Below are positions 3,139 to 59,539 of a DNA stretch of 64,000 bases, in pieces; within the stretch, counting starts at the first letter, position 1, and the number at the start of each line of letters is the position of its first letter. The stretch comes from a virus: positions 1-64,000 of the IMG/VR virus record IMGVR_UViG_3300045988_102008. One strand, 5' to 3'. A model generated the notes under the pieces. The model worked only from the letters and a program-made list of their open reading frames with translations, had not been told where the DNA came from and did no database searches. A program made the translations under genes and the position numbers.

Positions 3139-3944
3139 TATTAAAAACGACAACCAACGAGTTTTGTTTCATCAGCGTAAGTTTCTATGAAACAATAGCA
3201 GATCCTCGATATTTCTTTGAACAAGATTATGAAGAGATGCCGGAATATGAGGAAGAATCGGATTTTGATTTTGATTCTTATTGCAATAAGTTTATTCCTT
3301 TTGTACAGGAATGGGCGAATGAGGTAAGTGAACGCCTTTACGGATATGGCGTGAATAACATAAAGGTAACATCGGTCGGACATCCGAGAGAATATAATTA
3401 TGGTACTGATTGGATGAACATAGAGGTAGAGTTTTGTGATGAATGGAGGCAAAAGATGTTATCTAACATTGGTAAGATTATCAATGATGATAAATGCAAG
3501 AAGTATGCGGAGGCTAATTATAGGTCGGTATCAGGATACATCTTTTTAGGGCCTGAAGATTTAAAGGAATTTGAAAAGGAAATAATAGAAAGAAAGTCGG
3601 ATTCTGGATATGATGTAACAGTATTATTAAATATGTATCTAACTTTGGCTTTTGTAAAAGAATTTGGATTTAAAGCCGGAGAAGCGTGGAGTGAAATAAC
3701 AGTACATGCTTACGAATGTTTATCATATTCTGATTTTGCAACAACAGAGATGCTTATACCGGAAGGTTCAGAGCATTTATTCAAAGACATTTACACGGCA
3801 AAGGCCGACGAATTATATCATCATGTCCTGGATAAATTCGGATGGGCGTGGCGTGATCCGAAATATAAATCGGAAACAGAATTATGCGCGATGTTAAAGT
3901 GGGCAAAAGAGAAAGGCTTAACCATTGAAGAGTTAAGTATTTAA
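3135..3944 (+). CDS. Hypothetical acidic protein (269 aa)
   Basis: ATGA overlap with the upstream ORF. Long ORF with no competing frame. Confidence 0.6.
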   Translation: MILKTTTNEFCFISVSFYETIADPRYFFEQDYEEMPEYEEESDFDFDSYCNKFIPFVQEWANEVSERLYGYGVNNIKVTSVGHPREYNYGTDWMNIEVEFCDEWRQKMLSNIGKIINDDKCKKYAEANYRSVSGYIFLGPEDLKEFEKEIIERKSDSGYDVTVLLNMYLTLAFVKEFGFKAGEAWSEITVHAYECLSYSDFATTEMLIPEGSEHLFKDIYTAKADELYHHVLDKFGWAWRDPKYKSETELCAMLKWAKEKGLTIEELSI

Positions 3945-3971
3945 TTGTTAAACATAAGGCAGTAGTGGTGC

Positions 3972-4256
3972 GTGAGTATAGGTGCTGCCGTTAAATTATT
4001 TTATAATATGAAAAAGGAAGAGATTCAAACTATTTTATACACAATCAAAGAAGGAGATAGTATTAAGATTAAAGTACAAGACAAAAGTGAAGAAATAAGA
4101 CTACGGGACCATGTAAGAAGAGTACAGAAATACGGATACAGGTTTTGTTTGTCTCATTTGCATGATGGAATTTTCTATCTGGAGAAGTTGGAAGAGGGAG
4201 ATAAAGATAAATACTATAGAGTAATAAACAGAGGAAATGGAAAGACCGGAGTATAA
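3972..4256 (+). CDS. Hypothetical protein (GTG start at 3972, or ATG at 4008)
   Basis: The track ORF begins with GTG. The first in-frame ATG is at 4008. Confidence 0.5.
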   Translation: MSIGAAVKLFYNMKKEEIQTILYTIKEGDSIKIKVQDKSEEIRLRDHVRRVQKYGYRFCLSHLHDGIFYLEKLEEGDKDKYYRVINRGNGKTGV

Positions 4257-4530
4257 TAAGCTACGCAAAATGGCTAAGACTACTCCAGGTTTGATAGTGG
4301 ACGAGGCGCAAAACATGATGCGTGTATCGCTGTATGATAATGGGGAACTTAAGAAGGTGGTAGTAGTAATGAAATGCGATTCTTTTTTACAGTCAAAAAG
4401 TAACATAGAAAAGATAATGTTATTATCATCTTCTATAGAAGATAGAAAAAACAAAGAAAAAAATAAAACAAAATCAGAAAATGAACAGAATAACAAAAAT
4501 AAGAGAAGAAATAGGAGGAAAACAGGTTGA
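4237..4530 (+). CDS. Hypothetical protein with a K/N-rich C-terminus
   Basis: ATG start with AGGAA upstream. Confidence 0.45.
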   Translation: MERPEYNKLRKMAKTTPGLIVDEAQNMMRVSLYDNGELKKVVVVMKCDSFLQSKSNIEKIMLLSSSIEDRKNKEKNKTKSENEQNNKNKRRNRRKTG

Positions 4531-4864
4531 TTTGACCTTTTACGGGCGCTTTTGCAGCCTTATCGAAGGTGATAGAAAGATAATACTAAGGGCGATAAAA
4601 AACGGTCGAAAGAAGGGCGTAATAGGAGCCATTCAGCCTGGGAGGCATGATAGAATTTGGACCACATGGTCTGTCGCTTTTGAGGATCTGAAGGTAGGGG
4701 ATACGGTAGAGTTCAGTACATCTGGGAAATACAATCCAGGTTTTCATTCTACAGAAAAGTATGTAGGGTGTGTAGAATGGATAAAAGGATCGGAATGTGC
4801 GATAAAAACCGGTAAGGGAATAGCAGTAGTATTAATTAAACACGTGGAAAGGGTGGTAAAATAA
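4481..4864 (+). CDS. Hypothetical protein
   Basis: ATG start, 127 aa. Overlaps the upstream ORF by 50 nt. Confidence 0.5.
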   Translation: MNRITKIREEIGGKQVDLTFYGRFCSLIEGDRKIILRAIKNGRKKGVIGAIQPGRHDRIWTTWSVAFEDLKVGDTVEFSTSGKYNPGFHSTEKYVGCVEWIKGSECAIKTGKGIAVVLIKHVERVVK

Positions 4865-42306: not shown

Positions 42307-45300
42307 CTATTTGTAGCTAACATCATCGTCTCCTTCCGAATCAGGAGTGGCGCCGATGAAGAACATCATTGACTTGTTGTTCGTCTGCTGCCACCAATTA
42401 TAGGCGCGCGCTACGTCTTCCGGCGTCTTGATATTATACCATTGTTTGATAAACGTCTGTTTGGCGAGTTGCCTAAATAACTTAGACTCTCCCTTGTATG
42501 TACCGGATGTTACTTTATCAAGTGAATAATTCCTAAGATCGGTAAGATCCTTCAGCTTCCGTCCCATGACGAACGGATCGTTAATGATATCTACCACGTT
42601 AAGCTCCATAATAAACGGCATCTGTGAAGCTATTTCGTTTATGGTTCTGAATCCGACATAGGATCCAAATTGAGTAAGCCAACTTTCTTCGTTTTCATCA
42701 TCATCACGCCATCCGGCAAGAAGCATAGATACGGCCTGCACGATAAGGAACGTGCCGGCATAGACACTGAGACGTTTGAGATTGGTTTTTTCTACCTCAT
42801 TCATATTGTCTTTATTTTCGTTCCAGGCATCTATGATGTTTTTCATACCAGACTCGGAAGCTAAGCTAAATGTTTTGGCTATCATATTCTTTAACGTAAT
42901 TGACAGTCCTTCCTCTTCTTGCATTGTCTGGAAATTGAAGCCACGTCTTTTCCACAGACGTTGAGCCGCCAGCACCAACCATCCTCGGTGGGCGGTCATG
43001 AACCTAGCTATCCAGTTGCGCGATGCGGCAGTTCGGTTTTCTTCATTCAAAGATCCGTTACATATCTGCGACAAGCTACGAACTTGATTTCTGGTTATAG
43101 CCATCTGGGTTTCAACTTCCTCAACAGTAACACCTGATCCGGGCTTTACAACCACCTTCCCATCCACGACATCTACCATACTCCATAAAGTACGATCTTT
43201 TAATGCATTCCATTCTCTTTTTATGGTACTCTGTTCTTTATTACGTTCTTTTTCCATCTTGAAATCTTGGAACGTGTAGAACCGACCTTTGTAATAACGA
43301 ACATTGTCCATAGTAGCAATCATAACCTGCGGATCAAGAGGGTAGTTCAGGATTTCCATAAAAGCATACATAGGCGAACGCATTAAGGTCCTGGCCACTC
43401 TATTGTATCCGGCACCATACATACGATTTCGGATATTGAATATCCCCATTCTCTCACCTATGACATATAATTTGCTTTTCCTATCTATGTCTCCGGTTTC
43501 TGCTATACAAGATGGCGCAAGGCGTGAAAATTCAGCCGATGCGTATTTAAGGGAGTCTTTGCTTATATACTGTCCTACGGCAGATTCCATGATGAGGTTG
43601 ATATGACCTGTTAAGGCGCCGGTAGCTGCCACAAACGGAGACAGTGCCAAGTTCATGACCGACATAAACCTTTCAACAGCCATCATAATTCTTGTAAGGT
43701 CTACCGTATATCCTCCGATGTTCACCGTAAGTTTTTTGGTGTTCATCCTAATGCCATAATAATGATCGTTGAAGAAGTCCCTGAACATCTGATATGCTTG
43801 GGTTGCCTCAGCTTTCTTACCGCCTTCAAATTGCTTATTCAGTAACATCTGCTCCAGTCCTTGAGCGAGCTCTATAGACTTCTGCTTTTCGTTGTATAAC
43901 GATGACTGCATCATAAGCATCGAATAAGAGTAGCCAAAATCGTGAGATACATCATCTTGGTTCTCCAATTCATATATGTAGTATTTAGGTATAGACCTAA
44001 GTCTGTCTTCCGGGTCATACACTTCTCCTTGCCTGGTCTTACCATATAGAGAATCGTCTACTCTGTCCAGGCACAGATCTGATACAAAATTACGAACCGT
44101 ATTTTTGAAGTTAATACCCAATCCTTCCATACGTTCTATGTCTTGTTTTGATATCTGTGGAATAGCATACAGGTTCGGGCTCTGCTCTTTGTATAGATCA
44201 AGGGATTGTCTTTTTATTTCCTTGAGTTTTTGAATCATATTCCACTGCTCTACGTTTTTAGTAGCAACTTCATTACCGTCAGCATCATACTTGATACCAA
44301 AGTCATTGAAATACGATTCATCACGATACAGGCTTTTCTTAGGCATGCGATGACCATACCCATGATCTTTTACATAATCAGGATTACGACCGTTATTTTC
44401 GGCTTCAGATTCAGCCACCCATGCCCTTGCAGGGTCGAAAGACAGGTACGATATGTCCATGCCATAATCTTGGGTGGATGTACCGTTTTGTACGTCCTTA
44501 ACCATCTGCGCCACATCTATCTCACCTCGACCGATTTTGTCGATCATAGCTGCATATCCGGTAGGCGCCATGCGTTTATAGTACGAAAAAACCTGGCTTC
44601 TGGCAAATTCATTAACAATAGCATTAGCTTCTTCTACGCCCTCTTCTCTTGTATTATTTAAAAATAAGCTGGCCATCTTAGCATTAACAGCATTCCTGAA
44701 ATCTCTACCGTCTAATTCTTTGCTTATACCAAGCTTTTCTGACAGGTAGTTGGTTTCAGATACGGTAAACAGATATCGGTTATCAGCAGCCTTAAACAGC
44801 TTATCCCTTAAAGCCTGAATCCTTTTTGCTTTCTTCGCCGTAGTATGACGTTGTACGAACTTCCATTCCACTTCCTTGGAGTCAGCAAGAGCATTTAAAT
44901 AAGACTGATTTACTTCGTTTTCAGCCTTACTGCTTTTAGTAAGGTACTTATCAATATCTTCAAGACCCACCATCTTAGCATAATCTATCAAAATAGCGTA
45001 ATCGGCTTCAATAGCTTCAGATGCGGCCCTAAAAGCATCTCTTTCAGATGAGGTAAATGTCGCTTCGTTAATTTCTCCGATATCAGCCACATCTCGGTTG
45101 TTTCCGATTGTTTCCTTGATAATGGCCTTATTTTTTTCTATATCTTTCACAATCGAATCCACGTCAGTCGCATCTCTATCACTTGTCGTAGAGCTAATGA
45201 TATCATGCGCCATTTTAAGATACGAAGCCTTGTTGTTTGATTCGGTGCGCGCCGACTGTTCCGATTCTACGTCATTCCAAAACCGATCATTAAATGACAG

Positions 45301-48300
45301 GTGACCTCCCAACATAAGTGTCTTCAGCGCAGCTTCCCCTCCAGATTCACGCTGAATAGTTCTCAATTTTTGCAGAAATGATTCTGATACGGCATTAGTG
45401 ACATTATTTGATTCTTTTCTCCAAACTTCATTTATGGCTTGTATTTCTTTAGCCATCTTGAGTTGATCACCGGTTTTTTCCACTCTCCTGGTTCCTACAT
45501 ATATGTATTCTGAAGCTGCTTCCTTACGTTGTTTACGAAGCAGTCCTTCTTCTTCGTAGTTACTACTCTTATAGTAAGCAACCTCATCAAAATTACCATT
45601 GCTATCAATAAAAGGCTGCCTCAATATCCGCTTCTGCCGAGAAAGAGCATTAAGGTATTCTTTGGTTGTTTGAGAAACCGGATGCCCTAATTCTTCTTCG
45701 GCCTTTTTGTATATGGATTCCATTCTTGTGGCATAACTTTCACTAAATTCCAGTTCTGAATTTTCAGCATCCCACTTCTCCATCTGTTCTGTATAAATCT
45801 TTTCCTGCTCGATGGTAAAAATATCGGTATTAACCCTATCGGACGACGGTTTAAATTTAGCGTTCTCGGTAACCGTATTTCCGTCCTTGTCAACTACTTC
45901 TCTTTTAAATACGTAATTACGGTTATTGTCAACCACATCATTGATTTCTTCTTCTGATATCTCTATGTTCATGGCGGTCGCAAACGCTCGCATCTGCGCC
46001 AGCTTCTTATTACGATCGTATTTAGCCATATCAAGAGCACTACGAAGATAATTAGAAATTTTTCCGTCTACTTTCTGAAGCAGTTTTTCAAATTCAGATT
46101 TGTTAAAACCATGCTTTTTCGCATATGCCAGGAAGTCGGATATGGCGGGCTGGGCATTCACCATCGCATTGTAATTGTCTTTGGCAATCATAGTTCCAAG
46201 AGCGTTATTGAACGGGCTGGAAGAATGCTCTAATATACCAAACCACCTACTTATCCAAGAAACATCGTGTTGAACCTTGTCAAAAAATTCTTTTACTCTC
46301 TTTACCTTATCTGCCGGCACATGAAGTTCGTTCATTAACTTATCAAGCAACGTGCTTTCATCAAGGTCTTGTACTGATTTAATATCAGACTGAATACCAT
46401 TGATGTCTGCAATGACGGTATTGATCCTATTTGTATAATCCTGCTTTTCACGTTCATCAAATTCGGTACTTCTGTTACGGATATATCCTCGAGAATCGTT
46501 CATGATCGGAAGAACCTGATTGTTGATAATATCTACGTTCTTTCGATCATTGGTATTGAGGTGAAGCTTGCCGTCTTTGGTATCACCATGAAGGATGGTG
46601 TTCACCACATTGCTTAAGTATCTGACCTGAGCTTCGGCTGTAGAGATCATGCTGTTCATGGCAGCCGCCATCTCATTCTTGTCTATTTCGGTCTCTACCT
46701 TATTTATCTTATCTTCTATGGTCTTAAGCTGAGCAAGGGTCATAGACGTAGTTACAGCCCTATCAGAGCTTATCTGACGTAAGTCTCTTAACGTTTTTCT
46801 CAATGCCCTGATTTTAGACTCAAGAAACTTGTTCTTGTTCATAGAAGAAAGGGAGTATAATGTAAAGTCATTATCCTTCAAAAGAGAAGTATCAAATCCT
46901 TTATCTATGTCGGTAATAGCAAGATCACGAATATTTTTAATAACGTTATTCAAATCCTGTCTTTGGGTTGATAAAGCTGATTTAAGCCAGTTTACAATTC
47001 CAGAGAGAAGCTGCCGGACGCGCCCCAGGAAGGAGGTGGGCTCTACCGGCGCCTGTGCTGTGCCGGTCTGCATCTCCCTGGCGAGGATCTTTCCAAGAAT
47101 TTCTCTCCTAACAGCATTATCAAGTTCAGAGCCTTCATATACCTTACCGTATGTATTATAATACTGACCTGCATACTGATTCCATTCTTCAGTGCCTTCT
47201 ACATCTTGCAAAACAGATTCAACAGCATTCTGATCTCTGTACGCCTCTACGAGAAAGTGTGCTGTTTCTTCTACTAAGTCAGACAAAGTAGCATCTTCAC
47301 CGACTGCTATTACGTTATTGGCAATATCCGCCAATGCCTTAGCAGAAGGTTCGTGTCCGTATTTAGTTTGGTACTTCTCTATATAATCGGTCATGCCAAC
47401 GACACTAACGCCCAGCGTTTTCAGTATCTCAACAATAGAATTTCGTTGATTACGTTCCTCTTGGCTATAATCCGATACGATCTTAGCTTTAGTATCAGCA
47501 TAAAGATCATTGTCTTCTAATATGAATGAAACTACAAGCGCATCAAAATGATCGTACTTGGCGTCCAATTCATTGTATCTTCCAGACTTAAGATCGCTCT
47601 TTATCTGCTCCTTACTAACCCTTTCCGTTCCTCCGGTGGCGAGTCTCATAGTCACCTTACTATTATCCAATGAATTTATGGTTATCATGCCTTGATCATT
47701 CATGGAAACATCAGAACCAAAATGATTACGGAGCTCAGTGTAGGATAATGCTGAATTGAAAAGCCTAATTTGTCCTGCATGTCCTTCTCCTGTAAGATAA
47801 TAGCTTCTTGTTTCCGGATCGAATATCTTGGATCCGGACAAAAGACCTTTCTTTATAAGGTAGTTTATTATCCCACCTTTTGTTGATAAAGAAGTGGAAG
47901 TAGAGGCGGTCATAACAGGTATAAAAGATTTGGGGTTGTTAAGGACATACTTTCCAGCCTTGTAAGTAATGTCTGCCACTCCATCCACGGTAGATTCTTG
48001 AACGATGCCGGATAAGAACCCTATTCTGATATCATTCCCGCCAGAGCGAAGAGCTTCTCCGTAATCTTCAAATAATTGACTACGATCGTTCATAAAAAAC
48101 AAACGAGGCTCTCCGGTCTGATACGTTACACCCACAGGATTAGAATCTGCTTCTGGTAACTCCTCTGGGCTAAATATCTTAAGACCGTCTTTTATAACCA
48201 TATAATTAACACCCTTATCCCGTACCATAGATACGGGAGTGAAGTCCGAAGATATAGCATCTTGTAGATACTGCCCGGCGTCTATTCCCGGTCCTTCCGG

Positions 48301-48729
48301 TACGGAAATACTTGACGGGACCATAGCATCCACCAACATAATATTATCACCCAGATCTTGGCTGTAGAATCCAAAGCCCGATTCTTGAATCCCATAAGGT
48401 GCATCTGATTTCGACACAAGAATAGGGTTGCTCATCTTAGAAGCCTTATCCAGCACCCTTTCTCTATAGGCTTCCGGAATAAGGTCGATATTGGATTTTA
48501 CCTTATTATAAGCCTGTTTGTTGATAGGCACATTCCTTCTCCAGTCACCAAAAGCCTTTAAGAACTTATTAGAAAATACGGTTTTAAAAACAGTAGTAGC
48601 CCGTTCCCTATTCTCCATAAGAGGAATAGATGCTATTTTATCAAACAACATAGACCTGTCCCCTGATCTGGTAGAGACAGAAACAACTTTATTTTTATTA
48701 TCTCTTTTAATAATACACGTTGATGTCAT
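42307..48729 (-). CDS. Giant protein (2140 aa), function unknown; putative virion-associated or ejected protein
   Basis: Uninterrupted 6.4-kb ORF with an ATG start. Cysteine-poor. No Walker, RNAP DxDGD or nuclease motifs recognised. Confidence 0.8.
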   Translation of the reverse strand: MTSTCIIKRDNKNKVVSVSTRSGDRSMLFDKIASIPLMENRERATTVFKTVFSNKFLKAFGDWRRNVPINKQAYNKVKSNIDLIPEAYRERVLDKASKMSNPILVSKSDAPYGIQESGFGFYSQDLGDNIMLVDAMVPSSISVPEGPGIDAGQYLQDAISSDFTPVSMVRDKGVNYMVIKDGLKIFSPEELPEADSNPVGVTYQTGEPRLFFMNDRSQLFEDYGEALRSGGNDIRIGFLSGIVQESTVDGVADITYKAGKYVLNNPKSFIPVMTASTSTSLSTKGGIINYLIKKGLLSGSKIFDPETRSYYLTGEGHAGQIRLFNSALSYTELRNHFGSDVSMNDQGMITINSLDNSKVTMRLATGGTERVSKEQIKSDLKSGRYNELDAKYDHFDALVVSFILEDNDLYADTKAKIVSDYSQEERNQRNSIVEILKTLGVSVVGMTDYIEKYQTKYGHEPSAKALADIANNVIAVGEDATLSDLVEETAHFLVEAYRDQNAVESVLQDVEGTEEWNQYAGQYYNTYGKVYEGSELDNAVRREILGKILAREMQTGTAQAPVEPTSFLGRVRQLLSGIVNWLKSALSTQRQDLNNVIKNIRDLAITDIDKGFDTSLLKDNDFTLYSLSSMNKNKFLESKIRALRKTLRDLRQISSDRAVTTSMTLAQLKTIEDKINKVETEIDKNEMAAAMNSMISTAEAQVRYLSNVVNTILHGDTKDGKLHLNTNDRKNVDIINNQVLPIMNDSRGYIRNRSTEFDEREKQDYTNRINTVIADINGIQSDIKSVQDLDESTLLDKLMNELHVPADKVKRVKEFFDKVQHDVSWISRWFGILEHSSSPFNNALGTMIAKDNYNAMVNAQPAISDFLAYAKKHGFNKSEFEKLLQKVDGKISNYLRSALDMAKYDRNKKLAQMRAFATAMNIEISEEEINDVVDNNRNYVFKREVVDKDGNTVTENAKFKPSSDRVNTDIFTIEQEKIYTEQMEKWDAENSELEFSESYATRMESIYKKAEEELGHPVSQTTKEYLNALSRQKRILRQPFIDSNGNFDEVAYYKSSNYEEEGLLRKQRKEAASEYIYVGTRRVEKTGDQLKMAKEIQAINEVWRKESNNVTNAVSESFLQKLRTIQRESGGEAALKTLMLGGHLSFNDRFWNDVESEQSARTESNNKASYLKMAHDIISSTTSDRDATDVDSIVKDIEKNKAIIKETIGNNRDVADIGEINEATFTSSERDAFRAASEAIEADYAILIDYAKMVGLEDIDKYLTKSSKAENEVNQSYLNALADSKEVEWKFVQRHTTAKKAKRIQALRDKLFKAADNRYLFTVSETNYLSEKLGISKELDGRDFRNAVNAKMASLFLNNTREEGVEEANAIVNEFARSQVFSYYKRMAPTGYAAMIDKIGRGEIDVAQMVKDVQNGTSTQDYGMDISYLSFDPARAWVAESEAENNGRNPDYVKDHGYGHRMPKKSLYRDESYFNDFGIKYDADGNEVATKNVEQWNMIQKLKEIKRQSLDLYKEQSPNLYAIPQISKQDIERMEGLGINFKNTVRNFVSDLCLDRVDDSLYGKTRQGEVYDPEDRLRSIPKYYIYELENQDDVSHDFGYSYSMLMMQSSLYNEKQKSIELAQGLEQMLLNKQFEGGKKAEATQAYQMFRDFFNDHYYGIRMNTKKLTVNIGGYTVDLTRIMMAVERFMSVMNLALSPFVAATGALTGHINLIMESAVGQYISKDSLKYASAEFSRLAPSCIAETGDIDRKSKLYVIGERMGIFNIRNRMYGAGYNRVARTLMRSPMYAFMEILNYPLDPQVMIATMDNVRYYKGRFYTFQDFKMEKERNKEQSTIKREWNALKDRTLWSMVDVVDGKVVVKPGSGVTVEEVETQMAITRNQVRSLSQICNGSLNEENRTAASRNWIARFMTAHRGWLVLAAQRLWKRRGFNFQTMQEEEGLSITLKNMIAKTFSLASESGMKNIIDAWNENKDNMNEVEKTNLKRLSVYAGTFLIVQAVSMLLAGWRDDDENEESWLTQFGSYVGFRTINEIASQMPFIMELNVVDIINDPFVMGRKLKDLTDLRNYSLDKVTSGTYKGESKLFRQLAKQTFIKQWYNIKTPEDVARAYNWWQQTNNKSMMFFIGATPDSEGDDDVSYK

Positions 48730-50092: not shown

Positions 50093-50398
50093 TTAATATA
50101 GATCTTCTGAATACAATTGTTCTCTAATGGCACTCCTATCTACTACCATTTCCTGATTATTGTTTCTAACAAGTTCAGATGCCTCCTCTCTTGTTAAAAA
50201 CCGATTCTTGCTTGTCAAAAATCCTTGAACACTGCGGTTTTTATGGGCTATACCGTATGCCGCAAGTTGAGATAGTATAGAGGGGTGTCTCAATCCACAG
50301 AACACGGTACCGGATGGTATATTGGTGGGCTGATAGGGACGTTTCTTGTCGTCCTGTACCCAGATGGCCGCGCATATCACGATTTCTTTATTGCACAT
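50093..50398 (-). CDS. Hypothetical protein
   Basis: ATG start, 101 aa. Confidence 0.5.
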   Translation of the reverse strand: MCNKEIVICAAIWVQDDKKRPYQPTNIPSGTVFCGLRHPSILSQLAAYGIAHKNRSVQGFLTSKNRFLTREEASELVRNNNQEMVVDRSAIREQLYSEDLY

Positions 50399-50400
50399 GA

Positions 50401-50676
50401 CTATAAATTTAATATTCCGTTTTTACCAATATGTTTCTTTTCTTCTTCAGTAGGCCATTCTTTCTTGAACTTACCATGCCACGTTCCAGGAACTACCACC
50501 ACTTCGCCTCCCTTACTATATTCAATAGCGGCACATTCAGAACAAAGAGGCTTGCCTTCATATCCCTTTAGCGACTTATCGTAAATACGATTCTTACAAG
50601 GTCTTATAAGAGCCCAGTAATATGATGTGGCTGTATTATCTATACAGCCACATTTTGAACAAACAAACAAACTCAT
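50401..50676 (-). CDS. Zinc-ribbon protein (CSKCGC...CSEC)
   Basis: ATG start. Paired CxxC motifs. Confidence 0.5.
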   Translation of the reverse strand: MSLFVCSKCGCIDNTATSYYWALIRPCKNRIYDKSLKGYEGKPLCSECAAIEYSKGGEVVVVPGTWHGKFKKEWPTEEEKKHIGKNGILNL

Positions 50677-51464
50677 CCCGCAATCTCCCAGTCATTAGAC
50701 ATAATATCATGTTCGGTTGGATTCCAATTTGATGCTACTTTTTGACCTGTATCTACCATCAATATATTTACGTCAGATTCTACAATAAACATACAGATAT
50801 ACTTTTTACCCCAATCGATTCTTTTTATCTTACGACCTAATTTAAGCTGTTCTAAAGCCTGTTCGAATGTCATGCCACGACGAGGCAGTTTGAGATACTT
50901 TTCAAGTCTGTCGGCAGCTTCATTTGGTGTATGGCCATCGTATTCGAAAGCGGTTTCTCTTTCAGGAACATCAAACAAATCCCAGTATTTGCTTTCATAG
51001 TGATTAGATACCTGACCGGTAGGTAGGATCGCCATCACAATAAACCAATCATCAGAACCGAAGCATTTTTCTCCATCGCTGTGTCTCCTTGATTTGCAAA
51101 CTTCAACCTGTCCGTTTCTGGCTAATAGATTAAAGAAGGCGGCGTTATACAACATGCGGTACCGATACAATTCATTGAAAGTATGGTATCCATCAGAGAC
51201 TTCTCCCACGTCTACAGGCTTCTTGTTTTGAATACTACCCAAAATATTCTCTATATAGAGCTGTATTTTATACATACCCATTTCGGTGTGGCCGTATTTG
51301 TTCAAGATATTATTGACATCGTATTGTATATTAAAATCTTTTTCAAATTCTACTTCAGGATGATTAGGATAGTAGTAATCTACTGATGCTTCTAACACGG
51401 ACTTTACGTGTTCCATTACCCTCGTAGCATCATCATGTTTAAAAAAAATGCTTAATTCTTTCAA
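50673..51464 (-). CDS. Two-domain protein: unknown N-domain plus a C-terminal DUF2829 (Tad2-like) domain
   Basis: C-terminus MTFEQALEQLKLGRKIKRIDW...DIMSNDWEIAG matches the DUF2829 pattern (FxEAlxxLKxGkkvxRxxW ... DWEI). The track start is TTG; the first ATG is at 51416. Confidence 0.6.
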   Translation of the reverse strand: MKELSIFFKHDDATRVMEHVKSVLEASVDYYYPNHPEVEFEKDFNIQYDVNNILNKYGHTEMGMYKIQLYIENILGSIQNKKPVDVGEVSDGYHTFNELYRYRMLYNAAFFNLLARNGQVEVCKSRRHSDGEKCFGSDDWFIVMAILPTGQVSNHYESKYWDLFDVPERETAFEYDGHTPNEAADRLEKYLKLPRRGMTFEQALEQLKLGRKIKRIDWGKKYICMFIVESDVNILMVDTGQKVASNWNPTEHDIMSNDWEIAG

Positions 51465-51607
51465 CGAATTTAATATCTTCGTTGATTGCTGATTCGAACT
51501 CTTCTTTTGTCATCACTCTAATTACATCTTTTTTAAAATCGTCTAATCCCATGATTTATTTTAAATTAGTTGTTATTATACTTTTACATTTAAGATTAAT
51601 GTTTTCA

Positions 51608-52902: not shown

Positions 52903-53280
52903 TCAATAAGAACGACCTCTGCCACGTCCGCGACCTCTACGCATCTGAGGTCCGTCACCGTAGTATCTGTCGTCTCCATAGTAATCGGTCGGGTAGGATT
53001 CGTAACCCATCCTCCGGTATTCCCGGTCCTCCATTTCATGACGACGTTCGCGCTCTTCGAGCCTTCTTTCCCTTTCTTCCAGCTCGTTTTCGCGTTCTTC
53101 CATTTCCTTCATCTTCTCATGCATACCGTAATGATCATAAGGAGGAAGGAACCCATGTCCGTACTCCATGTACGTCCCATCAGAACGACGGCTTCTGCCT
53201 CTGCCTCCACCTCGCCTGTCTTCTATCTCATCATATCCAGGATATTCTCTGTGTCCTGAATTTAAATCATATACTATCAT
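52903..53280 (-). CDS. Low-complexity RG/RE-rich protein (RGG-box-like)
   Basis: RRGGGRGRSRR... EERERRLEERERRHE ... RRGRGRGRGRSY. ATG start. Confidence 0.5.
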   Translation of the reverse strand: MIVYDLNSGHREYPGYDEIEDRRGGGRGRSRRSDGTYMEYGHGFLPPYDHYGMHEKMKEMEERENELEERERRLEERERRHEMEDREYRRMGYESYPTDYYGDDRYYGDGPQMRRGRGRGRGRSY

Positions 53281-58357: not shown

Positions 58358-59539
58358 TTAACAAAATACATTCGTAATCCTTACCGGGTTAAACAATAAC
58401 CCTCTATCGATTATCCTACGAATTGATTCACAAGAATCACCGACTACTTTTCTCATAATGTTTAATGCTCCATTTACATCGGCATTAATGAGCTTTCCTG
58501 TAGAGGATTGAAATAATCCTCGTTTTCTCCTTTTTCCTAAATAGTTTTCATGTTTTCCTATCTTCTCAAATGCAAGAGAATCACATTTTGAAGTATATGA
58601 TTCTTCATTGATAACTATTTCAATACCAGCTAATTCACATTTGTATTCTAAGTAACTAACTAATCTCGCAAAAGGGATTTGGGTAAACTTTTGGTTATTC
58701 TTTTTACCTATATTTACATTTTGTTTCCATCCCTTGTTATAGCCTACAACTAATTTTGTTATCTTGGAATCGATAAGTAAATCAACTATCTTTCTACTGA
58801 TTTTATGAAAGACATCTTCTATGTACTGTTCTCTATCATAATATAATTTCTTCATTCGTTTCGTTATCCCTTTTATCTTTTGTAAATCCTTGATACTATT
58901 TAATTTAGCAAGTATTTTATTAAATAATTGATTGTATGATTTAACAAATTTACCGCTAAATAGAACAGTAAAATATTCACTAACTAATGTTACAAGATTG
59001 TTTATTCCTAAATCAATGGAAGCTATTTTCTCTTCTCTACCTTTAGACACTTCAGTATCTTTTACCTCATAAATGATTTCTATCTTATATCCACACGCTA
59101 ACGGTTTTATTCTAATCTGCTTGAAATCTTTTATCAAATCAGAATACTTCTCATATTGAGGAATGGGTATTGAAATATCTTTTGATAGGATTATTTTCCC
59201 ATCTTTTATTTTGCAACTCTGGCTCGTGTAATACAAATTGAACTCAGAACCTCTCTTTTTGTAATTTGGAAGACCTGGTTTTTCTTTGTATTTATTATGA
59301 TTTTTCTTATAATCTTGGACAGATTTGTAGTAACCTTTAATGTTTTTATCAAGAATACGAAGAACTTGTTGTGAACATTGCGCCTTTAATAATCTATAAT
59401 TAATATCTCCATCCAAGTTCTTAGTATTCTTCATGATAGTATCAAGTTCAAAATAAGATAACCACTTATCTTCTTTAGAAAGTGTTTCTCTGAAAATATA
59501 TAACGCCTGATTGTACAAGTTATTGCTAATCTTGCACAA
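58358..59539 (-). CDS. tnpB: TnpB-like RuvC-fold nuclease (IS200/IS605 OrfB family), zinc finger absent
   Basis: RuvC-I IASIDLGINN, RuvC-II IVINEESYTSK, RuvC-III LINADVNGALNIMRKV. N-terminal QQVLRILDKNIKGYY region. TTG start only. No CxxC...CxxC zinc finger. Confidence 0.7.
   Translation of the reverse strand: MCKISNNLYNQALYIFRETLSKEDKWLSYFELDTIMKNTKNLDGDINYRLLKAQCSQQVLRILDKNIKGYYKSVQDYKKNHNKYKEKPGLPNYKKRGSEFNLYYTSQSCKIKDGKIILSKDISIPIPQYEKYSDLIKDFKQIRIKPLACGYKIEIIYEVKDTEVSKGREEKIASIDLGINNLVTLVSEYFTVLFSGKFVKSYNQLFNKILAKLNSIKDLQKIKGITKRMKKLYYDREQYIEDVFHKISRKIVDLLIDSKITKLVVGYNKGWKQNVNIGKKNNQKFTQIPFARLVSYLEYKCELAGIEIVINEESYTSKCDSLAFEKIGKHENYLGKRRKRGLFQSSTGKLINADVNGALNIMRKVVGDSCESIRRIIDRGLLFNPVRITNVFC

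Follow-up and report, generated by a model that had tools for sequence, protein, structure and literature searches.

Does a gene in a 64,000-nucleotide stretch of viral DNA (the window; positions 1 to 64,000 of IMG/VR record IMGVR_UViG_3300045988_102008) encode a Tad2-type immune-signal sponge, and what would the domain fused in front of its Tad2-like end contribute? Phages are known to get past Thoeris, CBASS and Pycsar mainly by means of sponges and of enzymes that degrade the signal. A sequence-only reading of the window had placed the gene at 50673..51464, and the ORF list and sequence confirm an ORF there exactly as claimed, on the minus strand, with a TTG start and 263 aa followed by a stop. 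Pfam hmmscan of this 263-aa ORF returned two domains above gathering thresholds: WDGH (PF25311; aa 87-189, E=1.4e-36, 125.1 bits against a cutoff of 27 bits, profile positions 1-96 of 97) and Tad2-like (PF11195.14; aa 198-261, E=9.5e-13, 48.9 bits against a cutoff of 25 bits, profile positions 1-72 of 73). When the ORF was compared with PDB sequences by phmmer, only Tad2 proteins were matched, namely SPO1 Tad2 (8sme), HgmTad2/AcrIIA7 (8kbi) and ModTad2 (9eib). The Tad2 match of 50673..51464 is far above chance level, and the C-terminal DUF2829 domain proposed from the letters alone is borne out. What had been described as a 195-aa uncharacterised domain in front of it is instead a helical leader (aa 1-86) followed by the catalogued WDGH domain, a family with no assigned function. 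PHROGs matches of the ORF fell in function-less families, save one weakly annotated 'transcriptional regulator' family over the Tad2 part, and neither NCBIfam nor PADLOC had a match to the protein or to the two neighbours downstream of it.

Within the 263-aa ORF, the variable leader occupies 51207..51464 (minus strand, aa 1-86). It is helical and indel-prone, its model is of low confidence (pLDDT mostly below 60), and a segment of approximately 45 aa within it (aa 38-82; 51219-51353) has a column occupancy of only ~30/120 homologues, about one quarter of close homologues, being absent for example from homologues P0017 and P0030. WDGH follows at 50898..51206 (minus strand, aa 87-189), its eponymous motif reading YDGH (aa 175-178), and the minimal Tad2-like domain begins at Met198 (ATG 50873-50871) and spans 50676..50873 (minus strand, aa 198-263). 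Small co-directional ORFs without annotation surround the gene, in a cluster of the kind usual for accessory or early regions. Immediately downstream on the same strand, a 91-aa CxxC...CxxC protein (50401..50676; phrog_11861, unknown function), whose start overlaps the WDGH-Tad2 stop by 4 nt, is a constant neighbour across all related loci. The next gene (50093..50398, minus strand) encodes a 101-aa T4_Y16D-like protein (phrog_839; PF26092 by precomputed annotation), a family also found N-terminally fused to WDGH in homologue P0110.

The start codon had been called ambiguous, TTG at 51464 or ATG at 51416, and this uncertainty could be traced to its source. A T8 homopolymer (CAT TTT TTT TAA A; 51441..51448, minus strand) breaks the reading frame of a gene that T7 relatives carry in one piece (291 aa), so that its true N-terminus lies in the other frame, in an upstream 37-aa ORF (MGLDDFKKDVIRVMTKEEFESAINEDIKFVERIKHFF, then a stop; 51439..51552, minus strand). 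Dropping one T from the run restored ...HFFKHDD..., and the frame-corrected product of 292 aa aligned end to end with homologue P0002 at 93% identity. Of 4,739 database homologues, the closest have lengths of 287-291 aa, with P0001 and P0002 (both 291 aa) starting MELKDFKDVIRVMTKEEFESAINEDIKFVERFKHFFKHDD. The nearest GenBank record, the 151-kb human-gut phage csAssE-Sib (92.7% identity across the locus), carries T7 and a single uninterrupted ORF annotated 'protein of unknown function (DUF2829)'. By performing exact-pattern scans of IMG/VR contigs with identical flanks, we counted T6 in 3, T7 in 56, T8 in 14 and T9 in none; T8 was found on at least three sequence backgrounds.

Related loci also revealed extensive exchange of modules. 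With the 67-aa Tad2 module as query, 20 proteins were matched, all near-identical (the count covers near-identical relatives), and these included stand-alone 66-aa ORFs of 98-99% identity. Within the same gene neighbourhood, locus L085 has the WDGH part deleted and Tad2 alone, L083 carries a different module upstream of Tad2, and 1-nt deletions in L084, L086 and L087 leave WDGH and Tad2 as separate overlapping ORFs. The Tad2 module is autonomous, as its stand-alone copy at the same locus demonstrates. Among other relatives, P0007 and P0004 have Bro-N or other N-terminal domains added, P0091 has an RRXRR nuclease-like domain where Tad2 would be, P0114-P0120 are WDGH, Sequestin (PF21825) and Tad2 triple fusions with Sequestin in the middle, and in P0130 the Tad2 module joined to WDGH has the canonical GWNGK.

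One explanation of the split gene is that it has been inactivated or is decaying in the window genome, T8 and the indels marking a dispensable gene under frequent loss. T8 does split the gene, the T6 and T8 variants together make up 17 of the 73 contigs, and the 1-nt deletions, the WDGH deletion and the module replacement described above would all agree with repeated loss. However, WDGH and Tad2 both lie 3' of T8 and are intact, the part lost is only the poorly conserved leader, and the 263-aa ORF past the slip shows no further decay: from ATG 51416 onward, its coding DNA is 100% identical to three T7 contigs. The window T8 therefore either arose by slippage very recently or comes from the assembly, and a single-base error of the latter kind may be what lies behind it. 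Elsewhere T8 appears to be maintained, as 52 blocks of the collection index the protein of the P0030 lineage, and all six loci of that lineage that were read (L002-L007, from different samples) carry T8, with the gene split as in the window. Across 35 unique close relatives, pN/pS was 0.09 for WDGH and 0.45 for Tad2, with similar pS, and both domains are under purifying selection. Decay is, in our judgement, quite improbable. A product containing both domains would be reached by an internal start at TTG 51464 or ATG 51416, by a +1 slip on TTT_TAA with tRNA-Phe on UUU_U at the UAA stop, as the local sequence suggests, or by transcriptional slippage.

To judge the Tad2 module, we compared its pocket with those of solved proteins (SPO1 Gp34.65, 8SME-8SMG; HgmTad2/AcrIIA7, 8KBI-8KBM; ModTad2, 9EIB), with which the module shares an HMM match above threshold and a phage origin; unlike them, it is only 66 aa long and is fused to a 195-aa N-terminal region rather than standing alone. 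SPO1 Tad2 contacts its ligand through W25, N26, W73 and D79, plus T78, I63, T65 and S76 (10.1101/2023.05.01.538930). By the mapping taken from phmmer alignments, W25, T65, W73 and D79 are kept in the window as W218 (50811-50813, minus strand), T239, W247 and D253; I63 and S76 are conservatively replaced by V237 and T250; and N26 and T78 are changed to G219 and H252. The GWNGK present in all four solved ligand-binding Tad2s accordingly reads DWGKK in the window, with WGK in place of WNG, while the C-terminal DW motif is conserved. Counting homologues with a residue at the column, W218 is kept in 104/110, W247 in 100/105 and D253 in 102/107. At the Asn column, fused homologues have G in 47/109 and K in 30/109. 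The N26-type Asn occurs in only 21/109 of them, an observation that runs against a sponge reading. In HgmTad2, N22 and G23 hold the diphosphate of gcADPR, and the W21A/N22A and S90A/T92A/D93A mutants lost gcADPR binding (10.1101/2023.11.15.567273); the set W21, N22, S90, T92 and D93 corresponds in the window to W218, G219, T250, H252 and D253. As W21A/N22A abolishes binding in HgmTad2, the change of N26 to Gly could abolish or alter it here.

The module also lacks the insertion between beta2 and beta3: approximately 19 SPO1 residues (41-59) have no counterpart, and a short hairpin (IVESDV) is all that stands in their place. Compared with SPO1 Tad2 the module is without residues 36-59 (alpha2 and the dimer interface), and compared with HgmTad2 it is without residues 32-72 (the cGG/cGAMP pocket). 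Since helix alpha2 and the insertion make the V-shaped dimer interface of SPO1 Tad2 (10.1101/2023.05.01.538930), a tetramer is not assured; and since the insertion (~19-40 residues) builds the cGG/cGAMP pocket in HgmTad2 and SptTad2, the window module would have no cyclic-dinucleotide pocket. With Asn and T78 replaced and the insertion missing, gcADPR binding cannot be assumed. Tad2 homologues bind 3'cADPR, 2'cADPR, His-ADPR, N7-cADPR, cUMP/cCMP or cyclic dinucleotides, and about a quarter of the sponge homologues assayed (19 of 84; Acb2, Tad1 and Tad2 together) were inactive against all seven systems (PMC12393519). The sequence alone therefore does not fix the ligand of so minimal a variant: a nucleotide-type ligand is likely, canonical gcADPR uncertain. 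The sponge function first proposed for this gene is partly supported: the W/W/D core of the pocket is kept, but the phosphate-binding Asn (now Gly), T78 (now His) and the beta2-beta3 insertion are not.

Given its family, the protein might alternatively be an anti-CRISPR of the AcrIIA7 type, AcrIIA7 being a DUF2829 protein from human gut metagenomes. However, when Li et al. tried to repeat the Cas9 inhibition, neither HgmTad2 nor other Tad2 homologues showed it, and HgmTad2 proved to be a gcADPR and cGG sponge (10.1101/2023.11.15.567273). We hold an anti-CRISPR role to be very improbable.

We then turned to WDGH, which the window protein matches over the full length of the model. A domain-only AF2 model reached pLDDT 94.8 and pTM 0.82; its predicted fold opens with a short strand region at the N-terminus, continues with a long helix and three strands, and closes with a short helix and then a C-terminal one. 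Alignment of the window domain with 32 diverse family segments (33 sequences) revealed 23 invariant columns, D91, G92, H94, F96, E98, L99, Y100, R103, Y106, N112, K124, S125, H128, F135, F141, L147, G150, Q151, N154, H155, Y156, F164 and H178, all 23 of which are present in the window and four of which are His. The family motifs SDGYHTFxELYxYR, KSxxHxDG, LPTGQxSNHY and WDGHTP are likewise all present, the eponymous Trp being Tyr in the window; among close relatives with a residue at that position (window included), Tyr occurs in 106/118 and Trp in 9/118. We read this pattern of four His together with acidic, basic and amide residues as a putative ligand-binding or catalytic site. The window domain is net acidic (18 D/E against 11 K/R by residue count).

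Searches for a characterised relative of WDGH gave nothing on which to base a function. A profile search against PDB sequences found no relative, its sole match being a designed minibinder in the flank (E=3.4); a BFVD search returned uncharacterised WDGH family members only; and a literature search for WDGH or PF25311 yielded no relevant mention. Comparison with the signal-degrading enzymes Acb1 (2H-phosphoesterase), Apyc1 (MBL) and Acb5 showed no similarity of fold or sequence. Identity with Lockin or Acb5, families of Tal et al., was considered separately and rejected, as both folds and key residues differ.

The family is nevertheless widespread. Exhaustive HMMER against 1.84 billion cluster representatives found WDGH in 3,778 clusters (50% identity) at E<=1e-3, and in the best 150 of these the domain is 59-99% identical, within proteins of 140-638 aa whose flanks are unrelated. 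Among 50,697 phage records, 197 carry WDGH (phrog_3392, phrog_3769, phrog_21846), every one annotated hypothetical; they include Listeria phage P100 (gp128) and its relatives, large Bacillus phages, Lactococcus phages 1706 and P092 (gp62), pneumococcal prophages and P22-like Salmonella phages (BTP1 gp06, epsilon34 gene 6 and ST104 orf54), in the last of which the gene sits between the coat gene and gene 4. Genomes of at least 267 bacterial species, from Actinomycetota, Bacillota, Bacteroidota, Pseudomonadota and Saccharimonadales, also encode it, at 46-75% identity across the 80 loci kept and 53-75% in prophages of Nocardia, Streptomyces, Vibrio and Bifidobacterium. Conservation this high across phyla is unlike that of known sponges and speaks against a sponge reading of the domain. 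Compared with the window, where WDGH is set between a variable leader and Tad2, bacterial and prophage members are mostly stand-alone proteins of 106-160 aa that consist of the domain only; WDGH is autonomous.

Where WDGH is fused, Tad2 is its most frequent recognised partner, found in 5 of 150 diverse representatives, and Bro-N, Sequestin, GNAT, sigma70 region 4, Myb, YccV and FaeA were each seen once; a frequent but unannotated N-terminal module bears the motif FPEL-ESEDERIRK. Same-strand neighbours at 76 prophage loci are early or 'nin-like' genes such as HNH, RusA, YopX, methylase and PNKP, with Lsr2 alongside in actinobacteria. No anti-defence gene recurred at these 76 loci, nor did any partner save the lineage-specific Lsr2. 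In Bacillus phage Nate, a NADAR gene overlaps the WDGH gene, an anecdotal arrangement absent from the other phages examined.

Phages are documented to fuse sponge domains with one another, and Sequestin was discovered through such fusions (10.1101/2025.07.12.664507); Acb4-Tad2 from Pasteurella phage Pm86 and Sequestin (PF21825)-Tad2 are examples (Tal et al. 2025; 10.1101/2025.07.12.664507). Like these, the window protein is a multi-domain phage protein with Tad2 at one terminus, and its homologues go further in placing Sequestin between WDGH and Tad2. Many gut-phage proteins join WDGH to Tad2 or to Sequestin plus Tad2. It differs in that WDGH is not a known sponge, has a predicted alpha-beta3-alpha2 fold and is far more conserved. 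The explanation we favour, tentatively and with a likelihood that falls just short of even, is a two-module anti-defence protein in which a minimal Tad2-type binder is paired with an independent WDGH activity on a small conserved molecule. The gene would then be an accessory gene, modular in build, of a human-gut phage of ~150 kb, in which two autonomous modules have been joined. The C-terminal 66 residues would most likely oligomerise and sequester an ADP-ribose-derived or other nucleotide immune signal, given that the fold and the W218/W247/D253 pocket core are retained; with Gly for the phosphate-binding Asn and His for T78, they probably differ in specificity from canonical 3'cADPR/2'cADPR binders. 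WDGH is an independent, very highly conserved alpha/beta module of approximately 105 aa, in which four invariant His are accompanied by Asp, Glu, Arg, Lys, Asn and Gln that are likewise invariant, and it may bind or chemically process a small, universally conserved ligand, either a nucleotide or an NAD-derived molecule. By analogy, WDGH-Tad2 would act like the dual inhibitors Acb4-Tad2 and Sequestin-Tad2; the case that WDGH may itself be a second signal-binding module is one of guilt by fusion. What the analysis establishes is the identity and fold of the domains, the state of the pocket residues, the exchange of modules at the locus and purifying selection; oligomerisation, the ligand, an anti-defence effect and a binding or catalytic role of WDGH are proposals built on these.

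Two other accounts centre on WDGH. It may be the functional core of the protein and have no relation to immune signalling, acting as a nucleic-acid, nucleotide-metabolism or host-takeover early factor to which the degenerate Tad2-like domain is simply an oligomerisation or regulatory, ligand-sensing appendage. In most cases WDGH does stand by itself or between unannotated flanks: 145 of the 150 representatives are without Tad2, and most WDGH proteins have no sponge partner at all. Prophage copies adjoin RusA, YopX, HNH, DNA methylase, Lsr2, PNKP and DnaN-like genes, and the remaining recognised fusion partners are enzymes or domains related to DNA (Bro-N, sigma70 region 4, Myb, YccV, RRXRR and GNAT). 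The 53-75% identity across phyla suggests a universally conserved target, and the Tad2 module has lost the key Asn and the insertion and changes about five times faster at non-synonymous sites, a difference that fits either arms-race pressure or looser constraint. However, the two pocket Trp and the Asp of that module are kept under selection, and the existence of Tad2 as a separate 66-aa gene at the same locus suggests that the module does something in its own right, beyond serving as an appendage. The acidity of WDGH would be atypical for a DNA binder, and the domain also joins bona fide sponge domains, both Sequestin and a Tad2 with canonical GWNGK. We consider a core function outside immunity unlikely, though a serious contender. 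Alternatively, WDGH could be a widespread new phage counter-defence family whose fold has not been seen before, in the form of a small enzyme or binder, rich in His, that would destroy or capture an NAD- or nucleotide-derived immune signal, or block a conserved step of signalling immunity, and that phages would repeatedly have welded to Tad2 and Sequestin sponges to yield multi-target inhibitors. This we regard as doubtful, a minority prospect.

The object itself is already known, as both domains are in Pfam and a 97%-similar GenBank protein is labelled 'DUF2829'. What is added here is a Tad2 module of minimal, WGK type that does without the insertion, the observation that it is fused to WDGH repeatedly, and the case of WDGH itself, a widespread domain for which the PDB holds no structural relative and which can be tested as the possible source of a new phage activity. 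New anti-defence families have recently been found through fusions to known sponges, and WDGH is a sponge-fused domain that this search logic has yet to reach; its value as a candidate lies in the lack of any literature mention found or solved structural relative, and in its enzyme-like set of invariant residues. The 66-aa, insertion-less WGK module matters for deciding which DUF2829 proteins to label as sponges, and the T6/T7/T8 tract offers a natural test case for possible homopolymer switching or recoding of a phage accessory gene.

The WDGH-Tad2 gene is split by a T8 homopolymer (51441-51448, minus strand), associated with an ORF at 51439-51552. Across IMG/VR contigs the tract was read as T7 in 56 cases, T8 in 14 and T6 in 3, with no T9, and all six loci read from the lineage of homologue P0030 carry T8. 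Judged from its sequence, the stretch made by T8, CAT TTT TTT TAA A, is a plausible candidate for a +1 slip site at the stop codon. The T8 tract could reflect recoding, phase-variation-like switching or a tolerated truncation; an assembly error in the window is also possible, since the sequence downstream of T8 is identical to that of T7 contigs.

Downstream of the fusion lie two constant neighbours, both on the minus strand. The start of the first, encoding a 91-aa CxxC...CxxC protein (phrog_11861; 50401-50676), overlaps the WDGH-Tad2 stop, while the second encodes a 101-aa T4_Y16D-like protein (50093-50398; PF26092 by precomputed annotation). The Y16D family is fused to WDGH itself in homologue P0110. 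The Sequestin sponge is T4 Y16O, an ORF name of the same T4 series (Y16) as Y16D.

We also found WDGH genes in other phages. Bacillus phage vB_BanS_Nate (L081) carries a stand-alone WDGH gene, gp134 (3348-3803), which overlaps by 56 nt with the next gene, gp135 (3748-4548), encoding a NADAR family (ADP-ribose-related) protein: the two could be a coupled pair or a frameshifted fusion. Nate apart, no NADAR gene was seen beside WDGH in the remaining phages examined. In P22-like phages, the WDGH gene sits within the late morphogenesis operon, with the coat gene on one side and the head-tail adaptor gene on the other, as in Salmonella phage BTP1 (186 aa; 3321-3881 of L082); epsilon34, ST104 and phage L carry it at this site as well. 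This placement is moron-like, and these phages offer a genetically tractable system.

Dozens of otherwise dissimilar WDGH proteins share a recurrent N-terminal module marked by the motif (I)FPEL-ESEDERIRK-LI, as in the flanks of P0155, P0160, P0171, P0212 and many more homologues. The module, which is without a Pfam match, also lies C-terminal of the WDGH domain in some proteins.

Elsewhere in the window, a 2,140-aa ORF (42307-48729, minus strand) lies directly downstream of the small-gene cluster; as its counterpart in the related gut phage csAssE-Sib is annotated 'structural protein', and further PHROG matches include a helicase and an exonuclease, the window is a very sparsely annotated segment of a gut phage genome of ~150 kb. 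A 393-aa ORF (58358-59539, minus strand) matches the phrog_506 transposase (E=4e-40), and in L083, a relative with a different module upstream of Tad2, the Tad2 locus is followed, a few genes further on, by a gene with a TnpB-type annotation (OrfB_IS605 / Cas12f1-like_TNB). Taken together, these suggest that mobile IS605/TnpB elements reside inside this phage group. A 125-aa low-complexity ORF (52903-53280, minus strand) has RGG/RGR-rich ends (…RRGGGRGRSRR… and …RRGRGRGRGRSY) and an ERE/REE-rich charged helix at its centre.
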